A stretch of 63,827 bases of DNA, counting the filler, from Stramenopiles sp. TOSAG23-2 (Eukaryota), in assembly GCA_900128395.1 (NCBI GenBank). It is 6 parts of 6 records of this genome, joined end to end, with 100 filler letters (N's around TTAATTAATTAA, not from the genome) between each part and the next. Parts side by side here need not be neighbours in the genome. Positions count along the whole stretch, not along the records: positions 25,104 to 37,547 come from LT649853.1; 5 more parts are not named here. One strand, 5' to 3'. The notes beneath the pieces are model-generated. The model saw only the letters and a list, made by a program, of their open reading frames with translations. It made no database searches and had not been told where the DNA came from. The translations under genes and the position numbers were made by a program. Shown here one piece after another: positions 25,104-53,382 of the stretch; within the stretch, counting starts at the first letter, position 1, and every line of letters starts with the position of its first letter.

Positions 25104-25480
25104 AGATATTAGGAAAATATTTATATATTTTTCAAAGTTTCTTCGATGCTTAGACTACGAAAGAAATAGGTTTTGCAGCCAATACAGGCAATAGCTCCAT
25201 CTTGCACACCTTTTTAAGGATCTACGTGTTACCATAGGCAAAAAAGTATTATATTGTAGACTACCAGGTACAGAGCGCATCTATGCACCTATTACAATGC
25301 AGCGAATGGATTTAGATTGCCAGGATTGCAACGATTCATCTCATGCACACTCGATGCACTACTTTAACTATTAATTACCAGATTACGTATTTATATTTAT
25401 GTATTAACCTGTCCTGTATTGTAGAAAGAAGAATCCCAAAGACAAACATATCGATATAACGAGAATCAAAAAAAAAAATC

Positions 25481-27388
25481 ATGCGTTGTGAAGAGGGAAG
25501 TAAGACACGAAATAATGCAAATATTAAACCGGCAATATATGTATTAATCATTACATGTATTATTAATATCGTATTATTTATAATATTTGATAATTATTAT
25601 TGTTTCACATTAGATGCTCGCTCAATTAGTTTAGGTAGAATTTTATTAGGTTTCATTTCGTTATATGATTTATATTATTTTCGTTTAAAATATGCGTATT
25701 CGTTTTATACAGATGATGGTATGTGGCCAAGAACTTTAATATTAGAAGGTAAAGATCCACAAGCGAAAAGAACTGATTTTTCACCATACATGGCAGTATC
25801 ATCTCATGTTCAAATTATTGCTTGTTTTTCAATTGTAGGCATTGCATCTTTTTTTACAATAATAGGTTATTGTACACATTTTTCTGTTTTTATTTTATGG
25901 TGTCATACACGTGGATTTGCTTTTCGTAATAGTGGCGTACAACAAGCAGGCGACACATTACATCGTTTGTTATTATTTTGGATGATGTTTTTACCATCCA
26001 ATGAACATTTTTCAATAGATTCATACAATAAAATTAATTCTACTTCTGTAGATGGAATGACTAGTAGTATTAATAGTATTGCTACGTTTGGTTTATTATT
26101 GCAATTAAGTTTAATCTATCAATTTACATCGAGTTTTAAAGTCAATCCAAAATGGACAGTTGATGGAAGTGCCATTTATTATGTATTAAATAACAAAGCA
26201 TTTGTTTATGAACCATTTGGTCGTGATATTTTGCTGAAATATTTATCACCGTTTTTGTTATCTATTTTAACAAAATCAACTGTATGGTTAGAACGTTTTG
26301 CACCATTATTTATTTTTGTTTATCCCTTGCGTTACTTGGGTGTTTTTTTATTTATTGGGTTTCATCTTGGATTATATTTTTCCATGCGTTTGGGATTATT
26401 TCCATTAATATGCGTTGCTGGTTGGATTATTTTAATACCAACAGATGCATGGAGCGGTGATGAAACAAGTTCTATTATGAATGTGACGGTACATGAATCA
26501 TTTAATACTCCTATAACGATTACGTTTAGTACCATGATAATAACATTTATAGAAAATATTATGTATAGGATTGTACAAATATTCGCCATTTATTTAGCAA
26601 TTGCATCAAATATTAACACGTTGCCAAAAATGCAACTCAACGATGAGAATTTATCTTTTTTTAAATGTGGAAAAAATCATATTATTAAATATTGTATAAA
26701 TAACTATGTTTTAGAAATGCCAAAAGAAATATATGAAGTTGCGCGTTTCCTTGGTCAAAATCAACAATGGTTTTTATTTGATAAACCACAAGATTATTCT
26801 TTTTGGTTTGATATAGTTGGTTTGGTTGAAATAAATAATAATGATGGTGATGATGTTGACAACAAAAAACGAAAAGTAATTCATGTTAATTTACATCGAA
26901 TTTATCAACAATACATAAACAAAACGTATTTGTTAAATTATGGCAAGATTAAAAATAACAATGGTATAAGTACATATAAACCTATTAATACGAGTGAAAA
27001 TTTTAATAAAGATTTCAATTGGGACGAATTGTTTGCAAATAATCGATTTAGAAAATTATACCAACGCTTAGCTGATAGTAAAAATAGGTATAACCATTTT
27101 CATGAAGCATTTGCAATGCATATGGGGAAAATTTTTGATTTATCAATGAAATCAAATGATTTAAATATTCCTAATGGCAGTACATTGAAGGAATTGAAAT
27201 TCATAGCATATCGTAAACAAACCTTGCCATGGAATGATTTTGTAAATGGAATACAAAAAATTGAGGACAATAATGATGATGATGCTGATGCTTTATCTTC
27301 CACAATAGCATGTAAAGAAATGTGGTCTTATAAATATTATTTACGAGTAATAGATGATTCCAATGATGCCAAGGGTAAAAGAGAGTAA
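25481..27388 (+). CDS. HTTM-domain membrane protein (vitamin K-dependent carboxylase-related fold)
   Basis: DARSISLGRILLG, FYTDDGMWPR, GDTLHRLLLFWMMFLP, FSID, FHLGLYFSMRLGLFP, QQWFLF. Confidence 0.75.
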   Translation: MRCEEGSKTRNNANIKPAIYVLIITCIINIVLFIIFDNYYCFTLDARSISLGRILLGFISLYDLYYFRLKYAYSFYTDDGMWPRTLILEGKDPQAKRTDFSPYMAVSSHVQIIACFSIVGIASFFTIIGYCTHFSVFILWCHTRGFAFRNSGVQQAGDTLHRLLLFWMMFLPSNEHFSIDSYNKINSTSVDGMTSSINSIATFGLLLQLSLIYQFTSSFKVNPKWTVDGSAIYYVLNNKAFVYEPFGRDILLKYLSPFLLSILTKSTVWLERFAPLFIFVYPLRYLGVFLFIGFHLGLYFSMRLGLFPLICVAGWIILIPTDAWSGDETSSIMNVTVHESFNTPITITFSTMIITFIENIMYRIVQIFAIYLAIASNINTLPKMQLNDENLSFFKCGKNHIIKYCINNYVLEMPKEIYEVARFLGQNQQWFLFDKPQDYSFWFDIVGLVEINNNDGDDVDNKKRKVIHVNLHRIYQQYINKTYLLNYGKIKNNNGISTYKPINTSENFNKDFNWDELFANNRFRKLYQRLADSKNRYNHFHEAFAMHMGKIFDLSMKSNDLNIPNGSTLKELKFIAYRKQTLPWNDFVNGIQKIEDNNDDDADALSSTIACKEMWSYKYYLRVIDDSNDAKGKRE

Positions 27389-27737
27389 TCGTGGCAAAAT
27401 CGCCGTTATACCTTTTTTATTTCCTATCAGTATACGAATATTAATAGTAGTCTTTTAATATAGTACAACTTACTGACTGATTTTTTCGTTATATTTAGTA
27501 TGAGCGTGTTTACTATTACTATTACTACTATTACTATATATGATGATGCGCTAAACTCAAAATTGTAACACACATCTTGAATGATTAATCATGAACACAT
27601 TTATATATGTTTATATATGTATGTACAAATACACTGTGTGTGCAACATATATATATATACATATGTTTGTTAAATAGTAAAGAGGAAGAAGAATATTAAA
27701 CATATTTTTATAAAATAATTATTTGGCCTCGAAAAAA

Positions 27738-28769
27738 ATGAATGTATATAACATGATTAAAATTATCATTTTATTCATTGTTACATATCATAATATTGTT
27801 ACCTTGGCACAGACAACAACTACGGTTGCACCAACGACGGTTACATCAACAACAACAGCGGCGGCATCGTCAACAACAGCATCGTCAACAACAGCAGCGG
27901 CATCGTCAACAACAGCATCGTCAACAACGGCATCATCAACGACAGCATCTGCGACAACAGCATCTTCAACCACTGCAGTATCTACAACAACAGCAGTATC
28001 AACAATATCATCATCAACAACAGCAGTATCGACAACGACAGCCGGCTTAAATGCAAATTGGGATTGCAAAGCAGCATCTGGTGAATATAAAATTTATTCC
28101 ACTGGATTTTGTCCATCGCCATCGTCAAATGAAGTCAAAGGAGTCTACGTAACTGTGAATGAAATTTCAGTCGATGGAGTATTGAAAATTACTGGTATTG
28201 CCGCTGTAGCAAGGGAATGGCCATCAATCAGCGGTGCATTAGATCATAAGCTCTTTAAAGTAAGTTCAACGGGACGAGAATTGCATTTGACAAATGTAAA
28301 ATTAATCAATGGAAAAAATAGTAAAGCTGATTCCTCTGGGGGAGCCATTGAAGTCTTGTTGTCGGGGAAAGCATTTGTTCAACAATGTATTTTTGCAAAC
28401 AATGAAGCGAAAATAGGTGGCGCAATATCTGTTGAGTATGGTAACATTGATGTAGTAAGCTCCATTTTTGAGGGATCGGCAGGATTTACAAAGACACTTG
28501 AAGCACCTGATGTATTTGGTGAAGGTGCGTTATTGAAAGAAAATTATGAGCGTACGGCAACTATAAAATCATCGGGCAAGACAACTCTGTTAAGTTTAAC
28601 AAGGGAAAAATTCAATGAATTGAAGAAAAATAATAGTAATAAACTGTCTTTAGAAACGATTGATGAAACATTGGAGAAAAATGTAGCAAAATATGAAAAA
28701 GAAGATAAAACGCGTGAGGCTGGTAAAGATGAGAATGGTGGTGGTGGTGGTGGTGGTTTTGAGGTTTAA
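27738..28769 (+). CDS. Signal peptide, mucin-like stalk and short GGAI beta-helix fused to a partial cNMP-binding domain (probably internally deleted receptor gene)
   Basis: Hydrophobic N-terminus; ASSTT repeats; GGAIEV...FANNEAKIGGAI; then VFGEGALL...RTATIK...LSLTREKF with no TM between. Confidence 0.65.
   Translation: MNVYNMIKIIILFIVTYHNIVTLAQTTTTVAPTTVTSTTTAAASSTTASSTTAAASSTTASSTTASSTTASATTASSTTAVSTTTAVSTISSSTTAVSTTTAGLNANWDCKAASGEYKIYSTGFCPSPSSNEVKGVYVTVNEISVDGVLKITGIAAVAREWPSISGALDHKLFKVSSTGRELHLTNVKLINGKNSKADSSGGAIEVLLSGKAFVQQCIFANNEAKIGGAISVEYGNIDVVSSIFEGSAGFTKTLEAPDVFGEGALLKENYERTATIKSSGKTTLLSLTREKFNELKKNNSNKLSLETIDETLEKNVAKYEKEDKTREAGKDENGGGGGGGFEV
27840..28040 (+). repeat. Coding minisatellite (about 15-bp GCATCGTCAACAACA units, ASSTT)
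   Basis: Directly visible tandem units. Confidence 0.85.
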
Positions 28770-29022
28770 AAAGAATGCTGCGCTATGTACAAGGCGTAAA
28801 TATTCTACTCGTAAACAAATATTTTGTGACGAAGTATTTTTTATTATATAATTTATTAAAAAAATATTTGTATACTCTTCGTATTTTATATAAAAGTTTT
28901 TAAAGTTTTTTTTACACGCACTTTAATTTTTCTTCTTTTATAAATATTATATATGTGCATATGGATTTTCCTCCTCCTATAATAGTCATACATTTTTAAA
29001 TAATCAAAATATACTCTGAATT

Positions 29023-29898
29023 CTAATGCGACGGATTAATACATGCTTTTGCACCTAATTCACATACCACATCCAATTTTCTTAAATCTTCCGTCACTTT
29101 ATATTCCCATTTTCTGGGATCAAATACTTCCAACCCATTGTATGGTTGCCATAATCTAACAATTTCACCCGTATCAATTGATTTCCATACATGATGAGGA
29201 CCTTTAACAAAATGATCAACCATTAATTCTCCCATGCCAATAAATTCAACATCTAATGTTTCACGACCAACATACAAAGCATCATGTGCCCAATCATTTG
29301 ATACTGGACCAACACCAACATTAATACATGGACAAATTGGTATTGGATCAATACCGTATTTCGTAATTTCTGGATGCACATTATTATCAATATGATGAAA
29401 ATGTTCCGTCATATTTGTTAATGGCAATGGTGTTTTGCTTCTTAAATAATCTATTCTCAACGCAATATTATCAATATCATAATTAAATACACCCTCTTGT
29501 CGTTTGTAACAGTGGGAACCATTTGAAATAGCTGCAGGAATTTGAATTAAGCATAAAGGATCACGTTTCACAAATATTTGAATCTCATGAAAACCAGAGT
29601 TGACAAATTGTTTTGGAAAGATTGGTGGTTTTGGTACAATACCTTTTGCTTTCATTTCAGCAGCTGTACCAATTGATGTGCACTTAATAGGTGTAAATTC
29701 ATTTAATTTGTCTCCAGATACCATACCTCCAATACCTTCACAGGTGGTACAGTTTCTGAATAAATCAGGACAGTCTGCATCATATTCATTACACCTTCTT
29801 AATCTTCCCCACTTGTGTGGATTCCCGTCACAAATACTTTGTGCCGGTATAATCATATTTATAACAATTACCACTATTAATAATAGTTTATTCATCAT
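29023..29898 (-). CDS. Secreted Cys-rich protein, possibly LolA/ependymin-like fold
   Basis: Signal peptide; PPIFPKQF, GVFNYD...LRIDY, CPC, DWAHDALYVGRE motifs; fold assignment is inference. Confidence 0.6.
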   Translation of the reverse strand: MMNKLLLIVVIVINMIIPAQSICDGNPHKWGRLRRCNEYDADCPDLFRNCTTCEGIGGMVSGDKLNEFTPIKCTSIGTAAEMKAKGIVPKPPIFPKQFVNSGFHEIQIFVKRDPLCLIQIPAAISNGSHCYKRQEGVFNYDIDNIALRIDYLRSKTPLPLTNMTEHFHHIDNNVHPEITKYGIDPIPICPCINVGVGPVSNDWAHDALYVGRETLDVEFIGMGELMVDHFVKGPHHVWKSIDTGEIVRLWQPYNGLEVFDPRKWEYKVTEDLRKLDVVCELGAKACINPSH

Positions 29899-29957
29899 TT
29901 TAAAAATATAGTACGGAATTTTTCAAATGGTATTCTTTTCGTTTGTATGTTTTTCAA

Positions 29958-30056
29958 TACTATAACAATTAAATTAGCGTCTTTAATTAGTAATGACTAA
30001 TTGTAATACTACTATAACAATTAAATTAGCGTCTTTAATTAGTAATGACTAATTGT
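29958..30056. repeat. Tandem duplication with 52-bp period
   Basis: tactataacaattaaattagcgtctttaattagtaatgactaattgt twice. Confidence 0.9.
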
Positions 30057-30488
30057 TTTATCTATACAACATAGTATATTGAATTTTCTATTTTTCCTCG
30101 ATTGATTCTCACCCACAATTGTTCGATACGGTTTTGATGACGACATCACCATGTTCAAGTTATTGGATTTTGTATAGTGCTATTATCTTGGCCGCTATCC
30201 AGATTTATAGTGCTATTACCTTGTTAATGGCACACACATATTTCATCGGAAGCTGGGAAGGTGGGAAGGTCGGAAGTCGGAAGCTATATTTTTTGGTGAA
30301 AAATGATGATACAAATTGAAGAAAATATTTTTGATGATTGATGATTATAACTGAGAGTATTAAAAAAATACGAACGTGTGTTATATTTTTTTCAAAACAA
30401 ATGAAAGGAACACTTTAACTTTTTAAAAAACGAGTGTGTGTTTTTGATTTTATTTTTCGCACACGCACACACAACATTATCCCACTCC

Positions 30489-31574
30489 TCACCTTCCATT
30501 ATTAATTTGATATCCATATTGTTGACCAGGATATTCTTGATCAAATCCAAATTTTGTACCACTACGACTGCTATTACTACCCGTACTACTAGGACCATCT
30601 AAATTACCACTATTTTGATTAACATTGTTATTGTGATTACTATTACTAATACTACGATAATCATGTTGTGGTCCATGTCCACCAGAATCTAACAATTGTT
30701 CTTCTGCAGGTGGTGGTGGTGGCAATCTACGAAAATAATACAAAATTAAAATACATGGTAATGTTTCAAACAATATATAATATCCACATATTAATATCAA
30801 TGGAGATATACCAGGTAAATCTTTATCATATCCTACAAGGTTTGAAATCGTACCATATGCAATGAAACCACTACGTAATGTAAAGCACAATGTACATATA
30901 ATACCCAATGCACGCACTTCATTTACTTTACCACTAACAATTCTAAATTCAACCGGTATGCTACTTAAAGCAGTGCGTGTACGATTGCCAAATACAACTA
31001 AAATGAAAGCGGTAATTGCAAATACAATTGCTATACAAGATGAAGATACAACACGTAACGGTGTTAATGCTGGTTTTAATTGTTGAAAATTACTTGATAA
31101 CGCATATAATGTCCAGAACGACACTTGCATGATGTAAACGCATACATTTGCGGTGATGCATAATGGTCGAAACCATATATCGTAGACTTTTACTCTATCT
31201 TGTGATGTATAATATACTTTAGCCCATGATAATAATAAAATAGTTGAGGTACTGAAAAATAATACACCTGGCAATTCGTTTAATATGAATAACCATGTAG
31301 GAAATCCTCGTCCATTTAATATAGAATCTGAGTTTTGCTCATCCCAATGCACGGTTACGTATACCCAATGAAAATGAACTCCTAGGAAAAAAATACATCT
31401 GGTACAACTACATAAAAAAATCATGACTTGCAATAATTTCTGTGTCGTCCATTTTTTTAAATAATAATGCACACGTCCAAGTAATACTAACGTAGTAATT
31501 GATAATAAACCAGTAATGATACCAAGTGCTAAAAACACCCAATATAATGCATCGATCGGTGCAACAGGTACCAT
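30489..31574 (-). CDS. THH1/TOM1/TOM3 (GPR137-like) seven-TM protein
   Basis: WTTQKLL, NELPGVLFFST..LLLSWAKVYY, ICTLCFTLR, YYILFETLP..LILYYFRRLPP. Confidence 0.85.
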   Translation of the reverse strand: MVPVAPIDALYWVFLALGIITGLLSITTLVLLGRVHYYLKKWTTQKLLQVMIFLCSCTRCIFFLGVHFHWVYVTVHWDEQNSDSILNGRGFPTWLFILNELPGVLFFSTSTILLLSWAKVYYTSQDRVKVYDIWFRPLCITANVCVYIMQVSFWTLYALSSNFQQLKPALTPLRVVSSSCIAIVFAITAFILVVFGNRTRTALSSIPVEFRIVSGKVNEVRALGIICTLCFTLRSGFIAYGTISNLVGYDKDLPGISPLILICGYYILFETLPCILILYYFRRLPPPPPAEEQLLDSGGHGPQHDYRSISNSNHNNNVNQNSGNLDGPSSTGSNSSRSGTKFGFDQEYPGQQYGYQINNGR

Positions 31575-32046
31575 ATTTATTTATTTTTGCAGATGTACGG
31601 ATATGTGCTTCAATTGTTTTTTTTTTTATTGTATATCTTTTATATATGATTGTTGTTGTATTTGTTTCTATCTATCTATCTGTATATCTATCAATTAATA
31701 TTAATAATTGTGTGTGGTGTGTACAAATCTTGTTGCATCAGACGACGACAAGGCATCACAGACAGAGAGGTGTTAAAAACAGGGTTTTTTTTGAAAAATA
31801 ATTGGGGCGATCGATGATGATGCTCCCGGGGTGACACAACAGACTTTGTCACCCATCATCCATGTTTGGAAGAAGAAGCTTCTTCATAACATATTGCAAT
31901 ATATATATATATATGTATATACATAAAAGTAGAAATATATTTGTATTATATTATATTATATTATACATCGTAAAGAAACAACTTGAAGTGACATAAAAGT
32001 TTATTGATATGTATGTGTAGATATCAATTTGGTTCTTTATAAAAAT

Positions 32047-33579
32047 ATGCTCCTCACGTTAAGTAAAAGATCATCATCTATCATCAAACTTCCACAATCA
32101 TCTTTACAATTGTCTAGGAGAGTATACAGTACGACGAAGAAAGATGCAGGTGGGTATTCCCAATCACGGCGTAATTATAGTTCGATAAATAAGGGAAAGA
32201 AAATCAATAAAATACAACATAAGCCAAAACATGTTAGCAAATTCAGGGTTCCCGATTTACCATATACCAGGTATGCATGGATAGGCTATGGCCTTACTTT
32301 TTGCGTGGGGTATTGGTGGTGTAGAACAATATATGTAGAGGAAGAACTAGAGGTAATAACATTTAAACAAAATGAACAACTATTTGTTGATCCAAATTGT
32401 AGTATTATTCTTGATTCTGGTGCTGCATCGACAACATTACCCATAAGTAGCGTTAAAAGTCGCAATGGAGAAAAATTTAAAGTCAGACGTGCTGATGAAA
32501 AAATGATTACTGTAACCAATGCTAAAATTAATTATGAGTATAAAGCAAATATTGGTATTAATAAAAATGTTTTATTTACGAAATCTTCAAATAGTAGTCA
32601 AGGTTTAATATCATTAGGTGCTTTACTAGATGAATTTAACGAAACTGCAATTTTATTCTCTCTGAATAGTGCATATGCAATAAAATTGAAGGATCTGAAA
32701 AAAAAATTGAAGGAGCTGGAAAATGTTGGTCCACTACCACTGCAATTGATTGCAGAAAGACATCCTTTAATTTCATTTATAAAGAAGTATGATAACAAAT
32801 TTAATTATGATAAGGATCATTCCCATGATATGTGGTACTGTTACCCTAAAATCTTATTTCCAGAATATGATAGCAGACTAAAATGGCAATCCAGGCAATA
32901 CAATGATCCCCCTGTGCTATCACAACCATTATTATTTGATACTGGGGCTACAAACCATGTATTTCCAATGTCTTCTTTCAAAAGCAATACAAAGTTTGAG
33001 GTTATTCCTGAAATAGTTAGCAAGACTCCGGATGATTCAAGCCCTTTGATTCTAAACAAGGCATTAAACAAGCTAGGACTTTTATACGAAGTATATGTAT
33101 CAGAAAAGGCTAATGGCATCATAATTTCTCCACTGCACATGCTTCTAGTGCTTAGGCGTATTCACGAATTAACATTCCTGAAAGATGTAAAATCTCTTAA
33201 CGATGGAACTTTCAGTAAGGCTCCTAAAATACAACCTAAATTTCCGCCTTTCCATGGTGCATTTCTGTTTACGCGAACTTGTGTGTATTACATTGGCACT
33301 GACGATATTGATATGGTAAAAAAACACAAAATTGCAACTTTTAAAAATGGTCTTTGGGAGATAGATAAAAAGTATTTTGGTTTGTCAGGTTCGGAATCAA
33401 ATAATATACCCATTATGTCAGACGTATGGGCCAAATCCAAATACGATTATATACTTGCAGTCCAGAAGAAACCTAACCAAATTGTGCGGGAAGATGGTAA
33501 GATGTTGAGGCGTCAAAAGGGTGAGAAAAAAAAATACATAATAGTAAGTGATGGCATTATGACAAACATTCGCCTTTAA
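32047..33579 (+). CDS. Membrane-anchored protein with two tandem copia-like aspartic protease domains and a mitochondrial-type presequence
   Basis: R/S/L-rich N-terminus; TM YAWIGYGLTFCVGYWW; IILDSGAAS (D at 32413) and LLFDTGATNH (D at 32938); first ATG at 32047. Confidence 0.65.
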   Translation: MLLTLSKRSSSIIKLPQSSLQLSRRVYSTTKKDAGGYSQSRRNYSSINKGKKINKIQHKPKHVSKFRVPDLPYTRYAWIGYGLTFCVGYWWCRTIYVEEELEVITFKQNEQLFVDPNCSIILDSGAASTTLPISSVKSRNGEKFKVRRADEKMITVTNAKINYEYKANIGINKNVLFTKSSNSSQGLISLGALLDEFNETAILFSLNSAYAIKLKDLKKKLKELENVGPLPLQLIAERHPLISFIKKYDNKFNYDKDHSHDMWYCYPKILFPEYDSRLKWQSRQYNDPPVLSQPLLFDTGATNHVFPMSSFKSNTKFEVIPEIVSKTPDDSSPLILNKALNKLGLLYEVYVSEKANGIIISPLHMLLVLRRIHELTFLKDVKSLNDGTFSKAPKIQPKFPPFHGAFLFTRTCVYYIGTDDIDMVKKHKIATFKNGLWEIDKKYFGLSGSESNNIPIMSDVWAKSKYDYILAVQKKPNQIVREDGKMLRRQKGEKKKYIIVSDGIMTNIRL

Positions 33580-33774
33580 AACATTTTTTTATATTAAAAA
33601 ATTAAAAAATGGCAATCACATTTTTTAACTCTCTCACAAAATATCCTATCTTGGCAATAATAAAAAAAACGCGGAGTAAGAAATCCAACAAATGCCAATT
33701 TATTAAAATTATAATATACTTCGTATTTTTTTACGAAGTATAATATTAATACACCTACCGCTACCCGTCTCTGC

Positions 33775-35466
33775 CTAAATTGTACTTCCTGATGACGCAC
33801 CACCTTTTTTTGATGAATCACTTGTTGCAGGACCTGCTAAATTTAATCGCCTTGCACATCCAATATATTTAAACATTAAAAATAATTCAATCATACCCAT
33901 TATTCCTCCAATTAACCACATAAAATGAGAAAAGCTTCCATAATGATGATTGATTCTTATAATATCTGATTGAAACATTGGACCAGATACTAAAGGACAT
34001 ATTGCCATTCCTATGCTCATTGATGCAGACACCATACCACTACATTTTCCTCTTAAACTAGCTGGTACTTTAGCGGACGCAATTTGTAATAATGTCGGTA
34101 ATGTTAAATTCCATCCAACACCTATTGTTAATAAAAAGAAAATAGCATGTATCCAAAAAATTTCTATAAACGTATATACTGCTATACCCGTTGTCAACAA
34201 CACACATGATATTATTGCTGTTCGTGGTGCGCCAATTTTATTAATCAGAAATTTAACTCCACATATATTCATTATAAGAGCTACAATACCAAATCCAGCA
34301 AGAAAAAAACCTAATTCCGTTGGACCAAAATTAAAAAGAATCATCCATACTAGACCAGTCATACTAGTCATACAAGCAAATGTAAATGCTGCAAGAGCCG
34401 TGCATGCAGCGCATATATATGCAATAAACGGCATTTTTTCATCTGTTGTTGCTGCTTGGCCATCATTTTTTTTAGTGTTGTCCTTCTTATCGTTTGTAGT
34501 ACTACCAGCTTTACCATCAACGTTCATCGATTTTAAAAATTCTTTTCTTCCATAATTATATATATCATCAATATTTTGTTTCCTTGGCCCACAAATTCCA
34601 CCATTCGGTCGTGTTTCAGGTATTTTAAAAATACCAATGCTTAAACATATAAATGCAATGATGGCTGGTGAGAAAAATGCAATTCTTTTATTGCCAGTAG
34701 TTGCAGTTATTATTCCTCCTACTAATGGACCTAACATAAATCCAAGCCCAAGCATTGCAGCAGCCATCCCAAAATATTTCGGCCGTTGCCGTGGATCACC
34801 AACCGTATCTAACACCATAGCTTGTACAACAGGCATTGTTCCTCCTGCTACTCCTGTAAAAAATCTAGCAAAAAGTAATGAATAAAGTGTAGTTGCTAAG
34901 CCACACCAAGCATATCCCAATGCTGATGAAACAATGGATCCCATAATAATTGCTTTCCTACCAACTGTATCGCTTAGTTTTGACATGAAAAAGTTTCCAA
35001 CAAATTGTCCAACGCCAAATGCGAATATAGTTAATCCCACCTCGACCGAAGAACCACAACCAGGTGTCTCGCCACATATTTGAGTCACATTACTGTTTTT
35101 TACATATTGTGGGCATGTTGGACATTGAGTTCCTTCCTCCCATGGTAATTCAAGTGTATAATATGGCAAAATTGGTATTCCTATTCCTGCACCTAGAAAA
35201 TCAACAAAGGCACATAAATAGGCTGGCCACAATACTTTTAAAACATTTGGCGGTGAAGATGATGATGATGAAGTACTTGTTTCCTCCTCCTCTTTTTTGT
35301 TCGTTATTACATTATCTTCTTTTTTTTCCGTGATATTAACATCTTTTGAAGATGATGATGATGAAGTACTTGTTTCCTCCTCCTCTTTTTTGTTCGTTCT
35401 TACATTATCTTCTTTTTTTTCCGTGATATTAACATCTTTTAATTCAAGTTCTTTTGATTGGCTCAT
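33775..35466 (-). CDS. MFS transporter (DHA1/TetA-like)
   Basis: About 12 TM; motif A KLSDTVGRK; ARFFTGVAGG; GFMLGPLVGG; IPET. Confidence 0.9.
   Translation of the reverse strand: MSQSKELELKDVNITEKKEDNVRTNKKEEEETSTSSSSSSKDVNITEKKEDNVITNKKEEEETSTSSSSSSPPNVLKVLWPAYLCAFVDFLGAGIGIPILPYYTLELPWEEGTQCPTCPQYVKNSNVTQICGETPGCGSSVEVGLTIFAFGVGQFVGNFFMSKLSDTVGRKAIIMGSIVSSALGYAWCGLATTLYSLLFARFFTGVAGGTMPVVQAMVLDTVGDPRQRPKYFGMAAAMLGLGFMLGPLVGGIITATTGNKRIAFFSPAIIAFICLSIGIFKIPETRPNGGICGPRKQNIDDIYNYGRKEFLKSMNVDGKAGSTTNDKKDNTKKNDGQAATTDEKMPFIAYICAACTALAAFTFACMTSMTGLVWMILFNFGPTELGFFLAGFGIVALIMNICGVKFLINKIGAPRTAIISCVLLTTGIAVYTFIEIFWIHAIFFLLTIGVGWNLTLPTLLQIASAKVPASLRGKCSGMVSASMSIGMAICPLVSGPMFQSDIIRINHHYGSFSHFMWLIGGIMGMIELFLMFKYIGCARRLNLAGPATSDSSKKGGASSGSTI
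35254..35439. repeat. In-frame 93-bp (31-aa) tandem duplication in the MFS N-terminal tail
   Basis: KDVNITEKKEDNV(R/I)TNKKEEEETSTSSSSSS twice, one substitution. Confidence 0.9.
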
Positions 35467-35969
35467 CTTGTCTATGTAAATTCTTGTATGTTTGTATATG
35501 CATGTATTTATCTATATTTCTGTTCTTTCTGTGGATGGGCTCCATATATTTATTTGTTCCATCGGAATAGATGATGAGTGCATTTTTTGAATTTTTTTTG
35601 GAGATTTTTCTACTACAGTATATTTTTGATGATGGTTCGACATAAAAAGAAATTACCGATCAAATTATTGTATTTAAGTATAAATTGATAGTACTGTTTG
35701 TAATAGATATTTCGTTCTTTTCTTTCTTCGCAAGAAGTGCAAATAAAAAATCCATGTTCGGTCCGATCCTTACTGGCTTAGCTTTTTGCATAATTTTATA
35801 CTAAAACTACTAAAGATATTTAAGATATAGAAACAGAAAGAGAAAGATGTAGTGACAGAACTGAAAGAAAGAAACAATTATACCACCAAGAAGAAGAAGA
35901 ACAAAAACAATTAAACAAAAAATAAAAAAAACCGTCTTAGTAAACAATTATAACTATTAGTATATCATT

Positions 35970-37040
35970 ATGAGTGAAACTATTTCAACTGCAGTGACTG
36001 AATTATTTAATATTAAAAGGCCAATTATATTGGCAGGTATGAATGTTGCTGCCGGACCGGAACTCGCTGCTGAAGTGACGAACAACGGTGGATTAGGTGT
36101 TATTGGTGGTGTTGGGTATACACCAAAATTCTTGAAAGCACAATTGGATGAATTGAAATCGTATTTGAATGACAAAAATGCACCTTTCGGTGTTGATTTA
36201 CTTCTTCCGCAAGTTGGTGGTAGTGCAAGAAAAACAAATAAAGATTACACAGGTGGTACACTTCCTCAATTAATTGATATTATCATTGAAAGTGGTGCTA
36301 AATTATTTGTAAGTGCAGTGGGTATTCCTCCTAAATGGGCAGTTGATAAATTGCACGGTAATGGCATTTTATGCATGAATATGATTGGTGCACCTAAACA
36401 TGCAGCAAAAGCTTTAGCTGTTGGTGTCGATATTATTTGTGCACAAGGTACTGAAGGTGGTGGCCATACTGGTCAAGTCGCTACGTCTGTATTAATTCCA
36501 ATGGTAGTCGACAGTGTACGTGGTAAAAAATCACCTTTAACTGGGAAACAAGTACCAGTAATTGCTGCGGGTGGGATATTTGATGGTCGTGGCTTAGCAA
36601 TGGCATTGTGTTTAGGTGCAGACGCTGTTTGGGTTGGTACCAGATTTGTTGCAGCTGAGGAAGCTGGAGCACCTCCAGCGCACCAAAAAGCAGTTTTAAG
36701 AGCAGGTCCACATGACACCATCAGGAGTACGATTTATACTGGCCGACCTATGCGTATTATTAAAAATACATATGTAGTCGATGCAGAGGAAAATCATGCA
36801 GAGGAAATCAAAGAATTTGCAAATCGAGGTATTATTTACATGCAAGGCGATTCGAGAAGACGCAAAGAAGCTGGTGAAGAATGGAGTGTACAGCAACAAA
36901 TGGAAGCACGACCTCAATTAATGGGTCAAGCTTCTGCTGCTATTGATGCTGTTGAACCAGCATCGAAAATCATGGATGAAATGATAGCTGGTGCCTTGGC
37001 AACTTTACGACGTGGAGTTGGTATGGCAGCAAAGTTGTAA
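35970..37040 (+). CDS. Nitronate monooxygenase (2-nitropropane dioxygenase)/FabK-like FMN oxidoreductase
   Basis: PIILAGM, GGLGVIG, AQGTEGGGHTG, AAGGIFDGRG, VWVGTRF. Confidence 0.93.
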   Translation: MSETISTAVTELFNIKRPIILAGMNVAAGPELAAEVTNNGGLGVIGGVGYTPKFLKAQLDELKSYLNDKNAPFGVDLLLPQVGGSARKTNKDYTGGTLPQLIDIIIESGAKLFVSAVGIPPKWAVDKLHGNGILCMNMIGAPKHAAKALAVGVDIICAQGTEGGGHTGQVATSVLIPMVVDSVRGKKSPLTGKQVPVIAAGGIFDGRGLAMALCLGADAVWVGTRFVAAEEAGAPPAHQKAVLRAGPHDTIRSTIYTGRPMRIIKNTYVVDAEENHAEEIKEFANRGIIYMQGDSRRRKEAGEEWSVQQQMEARPQLMGQASAAIDAVEPASKIMDEMIAGALATLRRGVGMAAKL

Positions 37041-37547
37041 ACAAACCAATACCGCTACCATCAAGGAGGAACTTACCAACAAGTTATTATAACAATTGTA
37101 TTGCTTTTAGGAATATTACCTTTATCACCACGAAAACGTCGTGTTATCAATGTATTATAATCCTCGTGCAAAAAAATTTATGCAAAAATCGAGACGAGAC
37201 AAAAAAACACCGCTTGCAAATGTGAGGCTGCTTAAAAAATTCGTAAATCGTTATTTTATCAATTTTGCCTATCAACACTATACCAAAAAAACCAGAAGTA
37301 TTCTGATGGTTTTCAACAAATAGGTACCCTCAAGTACAAAAAATACCTAGTATATCCTATCAAATATATCAAACACTACAAATCTACTTAGTATATGAAA
37401 AGGACTACATTAAGTATAAATATGATAGGAAATGAAAAACAGAAAATGTGGCAAAAAAACACACTTTTCAGTGTAAAATGTTGAAAGGCCTGTGTCCATG
37501 CTAATTTCTAAATGCTATTTCCATATATTAAAAACACTTCATAGGGA

Positions 37548-37647
37548 NNNNNNNNNNNNNNNNNNNNNNNNNNNNNNNNNNNNNNNNNNNNTTAATTAAT
37601 TAANNNNNNNNNNNNNNNNNNNNNNNNNNNNNNNNNNNNNNNNNNNN
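37548..37647. other. Artificial contig spacer
   Basis: N run with TTAATTAATTAA. Confidence 0.98.
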
Positions 37648-45025: not shown

Positions 45026-46516
45026 ATGTTAAATACCATTCATAAAGTCACTGGTGTAAAAATAAAACCAAATGATTCAAAAAGATTATTGTATATATGT
45101 ATTGTATTGTTTTTATTATTAACTTCAAATGGGATATTGTCACCAATACGCGATACGTTAGGCTCGATGCAAGGTAAAGATGTTGTGTCATATTTGGTAT
45201 CTATGTCTACATTTACTATGATTGCAATTAATCCGTTGACGTCATACATTGCAAATAATTGTACTACATTAATCATGGGTAAAATTTATATTCGTGGTGC
45301 TTGTATAACTTGTCTACTGTTTTTTTTAATTTTTCGTTTTCAACCAACATTTGATAATATAACTATGTCTATATTTTTCATTTGGGCTAATTTACATTCT
45401 GTATTGTCTGTATCAGTCGTATGGGGTGTTTCCGGCGATATATTGGATTTAAAAGAATCACGTTCATATTTTGCATTATTAAGTTTAGCAGGTACTGCTG
45501 GTCACATATGCGGCGCCGGGTTAACATCCTTTTTAACACGAAGAAATGTGAATGTAAAATATATATTATTGATCCCAATTGTGTTGTTGGAAATATGTTA
45601 TGAAATATATATTTATGTTTTAAATATGAAACAAGATGAAGAAAATGAAAATAATATATCGTCATCACAACAACAGTCGTCTCAACAGAAAGACAAGAAA
45701 GAGGTAAACAAAAAAGGTACCAACCAGAAAAACGAAGACAATAGTTTGGCATCTAATTTTTGTAGTGCATGTTCATCATTGTATACATTGTTTATAATTT
45801 TATATACAACATGTTATTCAGTTGGTTTAACAATGTTGTATCTAGAAAAAATCAGTATATTATCACATTTAAATACAAATGAGAAAGCACTTGCATTTGC
45901 AAATATGAATTTTTTTGGCTCAATAACTACAATGGTAATACAAATATTTCTAGCAGGTCGTATGTTATCAAAATCTTCCACATCAATATCTTTATTATTA
46001 TTACCATTGTCATTTAGTTTTGGGTTTTTCTGTATTTTTCAATGGAATGATGATGGCAATGCTATGAAATCGTTGTATATGTTTGAAATTTTAAGACGTG
46101 CTGTTGCATATGGTTTTGTCAAGCCTGTACGTGAATTGTTATACCAAGCTTTAGATAAAAGTCAAAAATATAGCACAAAAGCTTTCAATGATAGTATTGC
46201 TAGAAAAGTCGGAGATATGTTCGCACCATTATATAGTGTATTAACCTCTGAATGGAGGATGCTAAATGTAACGTGTGTTTGTACTTTGTGGTGTTGGCTT
46301 GCCGTTTATTTGGGAATAACATTTGATAAAAAAATGGTGTCTACTTCATCTTCAGGTCGTAGTAGTAGTAAAAAAAAAGTTCGTGCGAAAACTCCAGCTA
46401 AGAAGAAAGCAACACCAGCTAAAAAAAAGAAAGCAACACCAGCTAAAAAAAAGAAAGCTACCCCGAAAAGCAAAGGGCGTACAGCAAGTAGAAGAAGAAG
46501 AAGTTCAAGACGCTAA
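45026..46516 (+). CDS. NTT/TLC (ATP:ADP antiporter-like) MFS transporter with appended Lys-rich tail
   Basis: LSPIRDTLG, FFIW...SVVWG..D, GTAGHICG, RRAVAYGFVKPVRELLY, KYSTKAFND..ARKVGD. Confidence 0.8.
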   Translation: MLNTIHKVTGVKIKPNDSKRLLYICIVLFLLLTSNGILSPIRDTLGSMQGKDVVSYLVSMSTFTMIAINPLTSYIANNCTTLIMGKIYIRGACITCLLFFLIFRFQPTFDNITMSIFFIWANLHSVLSVSVVWGVSGDILDLKESRSYFALLSLAGTAGHICGAGLTSFLTRRNVNVKYILLIPIVLLEICYEIYIYVLNMKQDEENENNISSSQQQSSQQKDKKEVNKKGTNQKNEDNSLASNFCSACSSLYTLFIILYTTCYSVGLTMLYLEKISILSHLNTNEKALAFANMNFFGSITTMVIQIFLAGRMLSKSSTSISLLLLPLSFSFGFFCIFQWNDDGNAMKSLYMFEILRRAVAYGFVKPVRELLYQALDKSQKYSTKAFNDSIARKVGDMFAPLYSVLTSEWRMLNVTCVCTLWCWLAVYLGITFDKKMVSTSSSGRSSSKKKVRAKTPAKKKATPAKKKKATPAKKKKATPKSKGRTASRRRRSSRR

Positions 46517-50190: not shown

Positions 50191-53100
50191 CGATGGCACG
50201 AAAGATTGGCAGGGTATTACCTCCTCGGCAGACGGGACGAAGCTAGCGGCGGTTGCGTATGGTGGCAACATATGGACACTTGTTATACCATGCCCAATTC
50301 CTACCAGCGGTTCCGCCACCATCACCAGCGACTGTACTATGACGGACGAAGTTGCCGTTTCAGGAGACTTGACCGTGACGGGGAACGAGAATACATACTA
50401 CACTAAGATTGAAATGGCTGAATATGACCGGTGGTTCTCCTAGTGGTAGTGGTGGCGGTTCTATTCATATTTCTATTAATGTAGATGCTCATTTGAATAT
50501 CACTCATTGTGTCTTCTACAAGAACAGTGTTGGTTCTAATTATGGCGGAGGCGCAATCTACGCTGATGCATATGATGTTTTGGTCTCTTTGATGAATACA
50601 GAATTTATAAAGAACAATGCCGGTGTTTATGGTGGTGCTGTCTATTTTCGATATGGAACATTAAATAGTCACAATGTTCAATATATTCAGAATAATGCTG
50701 GTCATGGTGGTGGACTATGTTTGTTCTATAATAAGCTCAGTTCCATAAACAATGATTTGTTTACTTTGAACAAAGCAAAATACAGGGGCGGAGGTATTTA
50801 TGTATATGGTATTACCAGTTATAGTAGTATATTGGCTATTGTGCAAACAACATTGAAACACAATAAACAAACGACAGGAAGTAATCACAAGTATGGTGGG
50901 GGTGGAATATACATTGATTCCAATATTATCATTTCCATGAGAGAAAGTATATTCATTGAAAACGAAGCAGAAGCTCAGGATTCTGGGCATCAAATTATGA
51001 CTTACAATGATTCATCTGGTACCCCGTCCATCACACTGGTCAATACAAACTTTACACACATTGATGGAACGGCGAATAATTTCTATGGGCATGATGGTTC
51101 ATCAGGTGGAACTGCCAAATACATAGCCCCGAAAAATTGCGGTACAAACCCATGCACTGTTTCCCCTTTTGCTGGAACATGCACTGCTAGAACGAACACA
51201 ACTTACGGAGTTCTTTGTGACTTGACAGGATGCCCGACTGGTGAATTTAGAAACGCACTAGAAGTTACCGAGTCCATGTTACCCCCTCCCAACCCGCCAT
51301 CATGTTCAGCATCAACGACGACAACACAAGAGCCAACTACAACAACAACAGAAGCACCTACGACAGTAACTACAACAGAAGCATTAATGCTCGGGGGGGA
51401 GTGGAACTGTGCCGATACGAGTGGGGTGTTTACGCTGTCGAATGACTGTACTATGACGGACCAAGTTGCCGTTTCAGGAGACTTGACCGTGACGGGGAAC
51501 GAGAATACATACACGACGCTGACAGCAGCAAGCGGAAAGAGGCATTTTAAGATTGAAAGTGGAACTCCTACGTTGACATTGGAATGGTTGAACATGACTG
51601 GTGGTTCTCCTACTGGCGAGAGTGGTGGTTCTATACGTATTTATAATGTAGATGGACATTTGGATATCACTCATTGTGTCTTCTATAAGAACTCTGTTGG
51701 TTATGAGAAAAGTGGGGGCGCTATCCATGCTTTTGATGATACTAATAAAAATGTTTTGATCTCTTTGACGAATACAAAATTTATAGAGAATAATGCTGAT
51801 TTTGATGGTGGCGCTGTCTTCTTAACATATGGAAGATTCAATAGCCATAATGTTCAATACATTCAAAATACAGCTGCTCGGGGTGGCGGACTCTATTTGA
51901 ACTATCTTAAGGATAGTACGATAAACAGTAATTTATTTTCTTTGAACGAAGCAGTGAACTACGGAGGAGGTATTCATATATATGGTCAGACCTATACTCC
52001 TAAACAAAGTGTATTGGATATAACAAGATCAATATTCAAACACAATAAACAAACGACGGGAACTGGCGATCAATCTGGCGGGGGTGGAATTAGTATTACT
52101 GGATATGTTATCATTTCTATTAGAGAAAGTACATTTATTAAGAATGAAGCCGAAGCTGAGGATCATGGGCATCAAATTAGGACGCGTGAAGATGGCTCTA
52201 ATATTCCCTCCATCACACTGGTCAATACAAACTTTACAAACATTGATGAAACGGCGAATAATTTCTATGGGAAGGATGCTTCTGGAAGTGGAACTGCTAA
52301 ACACACAACTCCGAAAATTTGCAGTACAAACCCATGCACTGTTTCCCCTTTTGCTGGAACATGCACTGCTAAATAACTGTGACTTGACAGGATGCCCGAC
52401 TGGTGAATTTAGAAACGCACTAGAAGTTACTGAGTCCCTGTTACCCCCTCCCAACCCACCATCATGTTCTGCATGGACAAATTGCACCGCCGGCCAGTAC
52501 ATCGCTACGAACGGAACCGATTCATCTGACCGTGTATGCTCACCTTGCGGTGCCGGAACATATTCAGCTTCCGCCAACGCATTCTCTTGCACTGCGTGGT
52601 CCAGTTGTGTAGCGGGCCAAAAGATAGACGCCAACGGCACAAGCAGCACCGACCGGAAATGCGTAGCATGCTCTAGTGGACAATATTCTACCACGACGAA
52701 CCAATTCTCTTGTACCAATTGGACAGCATGTAATTCATCTGAAATAGAAAGTGTTGCGGGTTCTACAACAACAGATAGAGTTTGTGCATTGTCTGAGAGT
52801 CCTTCTCCAACGGCAGAATCGCCATCACCGGGTGGAAATACGCCATCGTCCGAGTCGCCGTCACCTTCTGGAAATACGCCATCGTCCGAGTCATCATCTG
52901 AGTCAACTATAAATTCACCATCACCATCCGAATCAGTCATGGAAGTTACGCCATCTTCGGAAGCCACTGTAGAAGTGACACCATCGCCTAAGTCAGACAT
53001 AGGCTCATCATCTTCTGAGTCACAAGCGGGAGATGCCGTAGATTCGTATCTACCTTCACCACCACCATCTACCCGAAAGCAGCCGACGTATGGTATAAAA

Positions 53101-53382
53101 AGACGAACACCAGCATTTAATCGAGAATCTCTAACGGTGGAACAAATTATTGGTATTAGTAGTGGAACGTTTTTCTTTTTAGTTCTGTTAGCATATGCTG
53201 CGGAGTATGTTGATGAACAAACAGCAGCTCGTAAACGAAAGGAAGAGGAGGCTCGCAAGAAGAAAGAAGATGAGGCTCGTAAGGCAAAATTATTGAAACT
53301 CCGGAAAGCGAAAAAAGCAAAACTTCAGAAAGAGAAAGAATTAAAGAAGAAAAATAGAACCACAGTGGTACCGAATAAATAA
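50191..53382 (+). pseudogene. 5'-truncated cell-surface protein gene (propeller-type repeat, two GGA(I/V) beta-helix modules, TNFR-like Cys repeats, Ser/Pro stalk, TM) with two frameshifting deletions
   Basis: WQGITSSADGTKLAA; FxxN...GGAI repeats; CTAGQY..GT..SDRVC; TM IIGISSGTFFFLVLLAY; frame changes near 50400 and 52372. Confidence 0.75.
50330..52469 (+). repeat. Diverged internal duplication of about 1 kb (about 50330-51308 and 51444-52469)
   Basis: Shared gactgtactatgacggac start and ccatcatgttc end; parallel protein sequence. Confidence 0.85.

Follow-up and report, generated by a model that had tools for sequence, protein, structure and literature searches.

A candidate single-chain aspartic protease with two copia-like retropepsin units in Stramenopiles sp. 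TOSAG23-2

The gene, its two motifs and its relatives

The stretch of DNA considered here (hereafter the window; 63,827 nucleotides, filler included) is made of six joined records of Stramenopiles sp. TOSAG23-2 (NCBI GenBank assembly GCA_900128395.1), with positions 25,104-37,547 coming from record LT649853.1. This record carries, at 32047-33579 on the plus strand, an intronless open reading frame (ORF) for a protein of 510 residues, P0001, which runs in one open frame from the first ATG after an upstream stop and lies in DNA of ~32% G+C crowded with long intronless ORFs on both strands. We consider it probable, at roughly 0.6, that this gene encodes a domesticated and tandemly duplicated copia-type retropepsin, working as a single-chain aspartic protease whose activity is predicted. 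An earlier note, made from the sequence alone, had placed two aspartic protease motifs 175 codons apart in this ORF, and they do lie there, with the codon of D123 starting at 32413 and that of D298 at 32938; the protein holds two D[ST]GA motifs, compared with 0.0066 expected per protein from its own composition. The gene and its parts are as follows:

32047-33579, plus strand: whole coding sequence of P0001, 510 codons plus stop.
32047-32271, plus strand: leader, residues 1-75, basic and Ser/Thr-rich, with no acidic residue before 33, presequence-like.
32170-32181, plus strand: R42-N-Y-S; R42 is invariant, and R-x-[YF]-[SG] occurs in all three protein clusters described below.
32272-32322, plus strand: hydrophobic segment, residues 76-92, 17 uncharged residues with a Kyte-Doolittle mean of 0.80; marginal transmembrane or sorting segment.
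32323-32871, plus strand: repeat unit 1 (N half, residues 93-275), with a retropepsin-like core at about 105-212.
32413-32424, plus strand: D123-S-G-A, the earlier of two catalytic-type motifs, invariant; in contact with the DTG loop in the ESMFold2 model.
32605-32613, plus strand: L187-I188-S189, copia-type "ILS" motif, invariant; S189 lies 66 residues past D123.
32899-33456, plus strand: repeat unit 2 (C half, residues 285-470); an insert specific to the lineage lies at about 365-400.
32938-32958, plus strand: D298-T-G-A-T-N-H304, second catalytic-type motif; D, T, G, A and H304 are invariant, 302-303 variable.
33121-33132, plus strand: I359-I360-S361-P362, second "ILS"-type motif; S361 lies 63 residues past D298.
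33544-33558, plus strand: V500-S-D-G-I504, invariant C-terminal motif.
33580-33610, plus strand: short 3' end, with a weak poly(A)-site hint from an oligo-dT library contig.

Relatives of this protein are few. When 1.84 billion cluster representatives were searched exhaustively with HMMER (E <= 0.001, no length limit), only three proteins came up, namely a 117-residue fragment of the same protein (P0003), P0004 (679 residues, 41% identity) and P0005 (479 residues, 42% identity), of which P0031 is a longer form with a fuller N-terminus. Word-indexed searches with the whole protein and with a four-sequence alignment (A1) gave, among the matches listed, only one relative, the 95% identical P0002, more distant ones probably being crowded out, and a half-domain profile (A3) run at the "longer" length setting recovered at E <= 10 nothing beyond the family itself. 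Two peptide patterns, which can detect close relatives only, found none in viral contigs or in prokaryote genome contigs; the ESM Atlas gave no usable match for the whole protein and, for residues 285-470, its best match of 0.88 was to unrelated bacterial clusters and fell under the 0.9 lead level. Orthologs that keep both Asp motifs are found in three protein clusters of 31, 10 and 5 members, which are 33-43% identical to the window protein (by alignment or tblastn) and ~40% identical to one another. The window protein and P0005 have EukProt records, and the P0004 cluster includes two fragments from marine surface metagenomes.

Conservation was read from A1 and from a 13-sequence alignment of full-length proteins belonging to these clusters. 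Both D[ST]GA motifs, H304, L187-I188-S189 and S361-P362 are invariant in the two alignments, as are the stretches VEEE, AFLFT.TCVY, WAKS and VSDGI; I359 is invariant among the four sequences and conserved in at least 90% of the 13. The loop formed by two hydrophobic residues, Asp, Thr/Ser and Gly is present twice, as ILD123SGA and LFD298TGA, in all 13 aligned members, and the distance from one Asp to the other is 157-175 residues in the family. The flap regions are poorly conserved in A1. We would also like to point out that codons 302-303 (window 32950-32955), right after DTGA, encode TN here and GI in P0002, from a close strain; the same four base changes are seen in one RNA contig, with D, T, G, A and H304 fixed. 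The P0004-type ortholog, encoded in a second genome at the locus L001 (4935-6974, plus strand; 679 residues), carries an additional C-terminal pair of EF-hands (Pfam EF-hand_7, E 4.7e-10), which suggests that the same protease body may have come under calcium control in that lineage.

Internal duplication and affinity of the two units

The earlier note had proposed that one protease unit was doubled into a single chain, and the internal repeat is confirmed by profile comparison. When profiles of the four-sequence alignment were compared by hhalign, the N half (93-275) matched the C half (285-470) over 144 columns with a score of 46.0 (probability 91.8%, E 7.4e-7), a value reached by none of 100 column shuffles (mean 12.6, standard deviation 2.6, maximum 23.4), the reversed control scoring 12.9. 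The match persists without the D[ST]GA stretch (30.2, E 2e-4, 122 columns; 0 of 60 shuffles, maximum 22.8) and is also found with the cores only (105-212 against 285-415: 34.2, E 1.4e-5, 95 columns). The tails alone (207-275 against 410-470) score 10.9 (E 0.15, 48 columns), which is noise; the duplication is therefore beyond doubt for a core of some 100 residues, and the tails go with it only by virtue of their position. Identity between the two halves is 17-25%.

None of the curated models reaches its threshold on this unit. The best Pfam match in the family is that of RVP to the N half of the L001 ortholog (E 0.011, 16.4 bits with a cut-off of 20.7, profile positions 15-79 of 101), and Asp_protease_2 appears at E 0.14 on the second motif of P0005. 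An apurinic endonuclease matched in the PDB (E 0.0039) covers the linker region and was judged spurious.

Reference profiles were built from retroelement sequences. For copia, prokaryote genome contigs were scanned with a degenerate DNA pattern for W..D[ST]GA[ST].HM, which gave 52 matches at 51 loci; the frame stayed open for at least 165 residues past the motif in 22 of them, and 21 were used after L025, in which copia domains were missing, had been dropped. A Pfam scan of 20 of the 22 found Pol_BBD starting at the motif in 19, followed in most of them by the copia order gag_pre-integrs, rve, SH3_retrovirus (9/10 and 10/10 in two batches); L047 and L052 were used among the 21 without a Pfam scan. 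The contrast set of RVP-type (gypsy-type) proteases consists of 14 of the 17 Pfam RVP matches in five of the same genomes, two with internal stops and one partial match having been left aside. Many of the copia matches lie on short contigs of a few metagenome-assembled genomes (MAGs), and these contigs are evidently eukaryotic retroelement DNA binned into bacterial MAGs. As an observation apart, several bacterial MAG assemblies contain numerous short contigs coding for Pol proteins of eukaryotic LTR retroelements (L002-L052, L053-L069; G001, G002), and one of these MAGs, G001, has about 15 contigs with the copia motif plus 15 RVP matches; eukaryotic DNA seems to have been binned with bacterial genomes here too. 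The copia motif pattern had no match in viral contigs.

The N half aligns to the copia profile over 151 columns with a score of 39.4 (probability 84.2%, E 7.4e-6; 0 of 60 shuffles, maximum 23.2), compared with 25.4 for the RVP-type profile (maximum of 40 shuffles 22.6), and its core behaves in the same way (37.2, probability 85.6%, against 24.3). Without the motif it still scores 26.0 against copia (E 7.9e-4; 0 of 60 shuffles, maximum 19.1), in the same alignment register as the full N half. Since the copia and RVP-type profiles score 32.8 with each other, the N half is closer to copia than these two accepted clan AA families are to one another. The C half scores 31.4 against copia (probability 52.0%, E 1.5e-4; 0 of 60 shuffles, maximum 17.3) and 29.0 against the RVP type (maximum of 40 shuffles 20.2), its core 31.5 and 29.3; the merged profile of both halves gives 38.1 for copia and 28.9 for the RVP type. 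Comparison of each half with the copia profile, as the earlier note had envisaged, is thus clear for the N half and equivocal for the C half, whose tie to copia is, as far as these profiles tell, mainly through its homology with the N half. A copia hidden Markov model run against the family sequences matched them weakly (best 13.2 bits with Z = 1).

Within the N-half alignment, posterior confidence is high at ILDSGA and across NIGINKNVLF..GLISLGALLDEF, moderate at ILFSL and LIAERH, and low where HDMWY is set against LWH, a correspondence that we do not claim. The earlier note had gone further in recognizing a third copia motif group in the tail after ILFS/FLFT; this part is left without independent support, as tails taken alone score as noise.

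A second line of evidence comes from the motif that follows the catalytic loop. According to Llorens et al. (2009; PMC2642776), ILS is usual in Ty1/Copia proteases at the place that ILG occupies in nearly all other enzymes of clan AA, and "DSGA" is named as the typical copia protease motif in another source (PMC3587641). In our copia sample, [LI][LIVM]S occupies the ILS column in 21 of 21 sequences, 65-76 residues past the Asp, and the corresponding distances in the present family are 66 and 63. LIS at +64 to +66 and I.SP at +61 to +64 align on the ILS of copia and on the ILG of the RVP type, as in an RVP-type example with ILG at the very column on which LISLG of the N half is aligned. Likewise, H304 after DTGA.. 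fits the D[ST]GA[ST].H of the copia sequences, the sample itself having been fetched with that pattern. A clan AA, copia-like affinity of the unit is supported by these comparisons. The copia descent proposed in the earlier note finds support in the profile of the N half and in the ILS motif of both halves; beyond its motif, the C half is no closer to copia than to the gypsy type.

Predicted packing, leader and genomic context

Retropepsin dimers show a loop-to-loop contact, the "fireman's grip", and pairing of the strands that follow the ILG helix. When the N part (P0001 91-280) and the C part (281-510) were submitted to ESMFold2 as two chains, the interaction prediction score from aligned errors (ipSAE) was 0.69, 0.69 and 0.70 in three runs and 0.00 in three controls; a mark of 0.69 is reached by 51 of 78 solved complexes and by 2 of 108 mismatched pairs. 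The runs share at least 59% of their contacts, with a partner pLDDT (predicted local distance difference test) of at least 52. The contacts of least error are those of S124 with F297, D298 and T299, of D123 with T299, and of G125 with D298 and T299, and the expected error of this DSG-DTG loop contact is 0.6-0.8 Å. Moreover, strand 201-206 (AILFSL) pairs with 405-409 (AFLFT), and the ILS-helix regions of the two halves face each other. The predicted geometry is that of a retropepsin dimer. The pseudo-dimer with touching catalytic loops that the earlier note had imagined is thereby borne out as a prediction, and a single cleft shared by the two halves is supported at that level; the pass may stem from solved retropepsin dimers that the predictor has learned, and so the model speaks for likeness and is no proof.

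An Arg/Ser-rich, acid-poor leader had also been described, and it is present: its first acidic residue is at position 33, its first 30 residues hold 5 basic residues and 11 Ser/Thr, and Arg and Lys outnumber Asp and Glu by 19 to 2 before VEEE. First 30 residues free of acids occur in only 3 of 27 long ORFs of the window. Common to the three clusters are an N-terminal stretch S[FL]QL..R and the invariant R42 within R-x-[YF]-[SG], which we take to resemble the R-3 processing motif of mitochondrial presequences; the maximum hydrophobic moment of the leader is 0.51. Judged from the composition of the leader and from R-x-[YF]-[SG], the odds that the protein is imported into mitochondria are about even, the main alternative being a type II membrane protein of the secretory pathway. 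As to the transmembrane helix proposed for residues 76-92, an uncharged segment of 17 residues is found there and its hydrophobicity is only marginal. Instead of anchoring the protein firmly in a membrane, it may act in stop-transfer or sorting.

The gene stands among host genes, with a THH1/TOM1-3 domain gene upstream, an MFS transporter gene downstream and a nitronate monooxygenase gene also nearby. Reverse transcriptase, integrase and gag families are missing from the 26 window ORFs and three L001 ORFs scanned with Pfam (one further long window ORF, lying beneath another, was left out of the scan), and no LTR-like (long terminal repeat) long direct repeats were found to bracket the gene. 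The earlier note was right in this respect. At L001, the P0004-type gene has a SAM-domain gene on one side and a gene for a group 1 glycosyltransferase on the other, and tblastn detects one copy per locus, with no second copy in the window. The multicopy fragment of a retroelement that had been named as the outcome contrary to the proposal is not what is seen: the gene is single-copy at both loci, has host neighbours and is conserved in three clusters, all of which supports a conserved host gene.

Contigs covering pieces of the ORF, most of them at least 99% alike, occur in four marine RNA libraries (poly(A), oligo-dT or cDNA) from four studies. A 49-nt contig from an oligo-dT library covers 33578-33610 and then continues into TAAAAAAAAA, a weak hint of polyadenylation 31 nt past the stop (after 33610). 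Constraint on the protein is indicated by its motifs, because these are invariant at ~40% identity.

Several other features of the window were recorded. The MFS transporter gene (33775-35466, minus strand) contains in its 5' part, at 35254-35439, a perfect-to-99% tandem duplication of 93 nt that repeats a 31-residue acidic, Ser-rich block at the N-terminus of the protein, and an intergenic tandem duplication of 52 nt (94% identity) lies between two genes at 29958-30061. The run of N at 37548-37647, bordered by TTAATTAATTAA, is filler at the junction of two joined records. The window is richest in G+C (0.39) at 50424-53382, where one ORF has a Chlamydia PMP-type repeat (E 6.9e-7), another that overlaps it has TNFR/NGFR cysteine-rich repeats (E 1.6e-14), and a long ORF runs antisense. 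Finally, an ORF at 45026-46516 (plus strand) weakly matches the family of TLC ATP/ADP transporters (E 4.9e-6), which is typically found in plastids and in intracellular parasites.

Readings of the gene and its place among aspartic proteases

The scheme that we favour takes the protease region of a Ty1/copia Pol polyprotein as the most likely source of the unit, with transfer presumably from copia to host. Each of the two tandem units would have kept a clan AA core, about 100 residues long, in which the hydrophobic-D-[ST]-G-A loop is intact and an ILS motif is present. Within the molecule, the units would most likely pack together to give a pseudo-dimer, with D123 and D298 facing one cleft and S124 and T299 forming the "fireman's grip". 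The product would be a single-chain, bilobed aspartic endopeptidase of pepsin-like architecture, arisen by a separate and much younger duplication. Its leader would direct it to mitochondria, where the protease body would be held at, or released from, the inner membrane. We regard as tentative, at somewhat less than even odds, the whole conjunction in which a Ty1/copia retropepsin was captured by the host, duplicated in tandem, fused to a single-chain protease with two Asp residues and, in marine protists, targeted to mitochondria (inner membrane or intermembrane space), with one lineage having added an EF-hand pair that could make it calcium-regulated; this would re-enact, in a form still readable from the sequence, the step from which pepsins have long been proposed to originate, and would be both the first domestication of a copia protease and the first natural tandem retropepsin.

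A number of observations weigh against this scheme. The window protein, whole or as halves, matches no Pfam family at E <= 10 and nothing relevant in NCBIfam; PDB sequence searches with the protein, A1 and A3 gave nothing significant, and Pol_BBD (PF22936), the copia model itself, was never matched at E <= 10 by whole proteins or halves. The C half barely favours copia (31.4) over the gypsy type (29.0) when its motif is included and without it falls to noise against copia (11.3, shuffle maximum 14.8); the tails after the core, taken alone, are at noise against copia, against the RVP type and against each other. The hhalign probabilities of 84% and 52% are below the usual safe level, and the family profile is shallow, with an effective sequence number (Neff) of 1.8. 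AlphaFold2, through which the earlier note had hoped to see the two Asp residues meet, gave no confident fold (pLDDT 31.1 from the single sequence and 33.2 with the 13-sequence alignment), so that the loop contact comes from ESMFold2 instead; a Foldseek search of the PDB with the second of these models had no match at E <= 0.001 and a best, unrelated one of probability 0.35, which is meaningless for so poor a model. Chain pLDDT in ESMFold2 is itself only 51-54, and the motifs may trigger the pass. Hydrophobicity of the segment at 76-92 is low, its Kyte-Doolittle mean of 0.80 comparing with 1.92 and 1.25 for the equivalents in P0004 and P0031 (14-17 uncharged residues). No RNA contig spans the whole ORF, and such libraries can contain DNA. 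Lastly, the 19 differences among RNA contigs comprise 13 non-synonymous and 6 synonymous ones, with no clear sign of purifying selection at that scale; eight of the 13 fall in residues 348-369, in or just before the lineage-specific insert, and the differences as a whole are too few to say much.

The first alternative is a duplicated clan AA retropepsin-like protease from elsewhere, either another LTR-element protease or an old cellular single-domain retropepsin, with ILS having arisen by convergence. The near-equality of gypsy-type and copia scores for the C half (29.0 and 31.4; cores 29.3 and 31.5) speaks for it, the only near-threshold Pfam match is to RVP and not to Pol_BBD, and the copia sample was chosen with the pattern D[ST]GA[ST].HM, which favours the motif region. 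We hold it to be unlikely but by no means negligible, because the N half clearly prefers copia (39.4 against 25.4; core 37.2 against 24.3), also when deprived of its motif (26.0), because ILS is found with matching spacing in both halves and in all 21 copia references, a peculiarity of copia as described in PMC2642776, and because H304 after DTGA.. matches the D[ST]GA[ST].H of copia.

It is well known that dead proteases usually lose residues of their catalytic motifs. This is relevant to a second alternative, which grants the same fold and origin and makes the protein a pseudo-protease serving as a binding or scaffold module. The poor conservation of the flap regions and the difference between close strains at residues 302-303, just after DTGA, are compatible with it, catalysis by this protein being a prediction, but D, S/T, G and A of both motifs as well as H304 are invariant in 13 of 13 members at ~40% identity, which renders a loss of activity improbable.

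Pepsins of family A1, whose motif is D[TS]G[ST], resemble the present protein in having one chain with two homologous lobes, one Asp in each and a similar motif spacing, and 157-175 residues between the motifs, together with a candidapepsin among the non-significant PDB matches (motif only, E 1.2), might suggest a very divergent member sharing pepsin's ancient duplication. This is resemblance rather than membership, and we consider such an assignment highly improbable: neither Asp nor TAXi of Pfam is matched at E <= 10, Ala stands in place of Ser/Thr after the D[ST]G of the catalytic loop, and the second motif has Ser (ILS) where pepsins have Gly after two hydrophobic residues. Pepsin lobes, according to PMC2761423, have in common only the Asp motif and the hydrophobic-hydrophobic-Gly motif, whereas the halves described here align over 144 columns. 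As the two lobes are still recognizably homologous (E 7.4e-7), their duplication would be separate from and younger than that of pepsin. Least credible of all is that the ORF arose by chance or belongs to a retroelement, active or decaying, as a fragment of it; only the copia-like motifs themselves could be cited for this, against host neighbours in two genomes, one copy per locus, no flanking LTR-like repeats, no reverse transcriptase, integrase or gag among the 26 window and three L001 ORFs scanned, a full-length frame conserved in three clusters and pieces of it in RNA libraries.

Returning to the duplicated copia-type retropepsin, the closest known system is the Ty1/copia protease (MEROPS A11; PF22936), a single-domain unit taken to act as a homodimer, with which the present protein shares the D[ST]GA(.)(.)H loop, ILS in place of ILG and a co-linear N half over 151 columns. 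It differs in that its gene stands outside Gag-Pol, without LTR, integrase or reverse transcriptase, in that its chain contains two copies, preceded by a leader and a hydrophobic segment, and in that the Pfam model misses it. Because it has neither the polyprotein context nor a match to the curated model, it is not a strict member of A11, only a derivative; the most fitting description is that of a family and an architecture both new to clan AA. Engineered tethered dimers of retroviral proteases likewise join two retropepsin units in one polypeptide with one active site (for example 4q5m_A, a 203-residue "Protease", of which two stretches were matched non-significantly), but these were made in the laboratory, from identical halves joined by a short linker, whereas the fusion here is natural, with halves at 17-25% identity and a tail of ~70 residues on each unit.

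Eukaryotic non-viral clan AA families include Ddi1/Ddi2, ASPRV1/SASPase and NRIP2/3 (as given in PMC2642776). Like the present gene, these are host genes for a retropepsin-like domain with a D[ST]GA loop; unlike it, they encode homodimers of a single domain that has ILG-type motifs and is accompanied by other accessory domains (UBL/UBA). We know of no domesticated retropepsin that is copia-type or tandem, and a literature search for either found no such case. Retropepsin-like proteases also occur in bacteria, such as the secreted enzymes of Pseudomonas (PMC11957051), which are cellular clan AA enzymes outside retroelements as well, but prokaryotic and single-domain.

If the reading is true, the Ty1/copia protease would join the few retroelement proteases that hosts have recruited, so far gypsy- or retrovirus-like single domains. 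If the location is true as well, mitochondria would have an aspartic protease of a kind not familiar to us from there. The family has neither a name nor a Pfam model and comprises three clusters only, and it is therefore invisible to routine annotation. Pepsin-type proteases are thought to derive from the duplication and fusion of a retropepsin-like unit, and their lobes have diverged too far for the duplication to be seen in the sequence. As the halves of the present protein still align over most of their length, an intermediate stage on the way to a two-lobed protease could be studied directly, and with it how a symmetric homodimer site becomes asymmetric, what roles linker and tails play, and how specificity changes.

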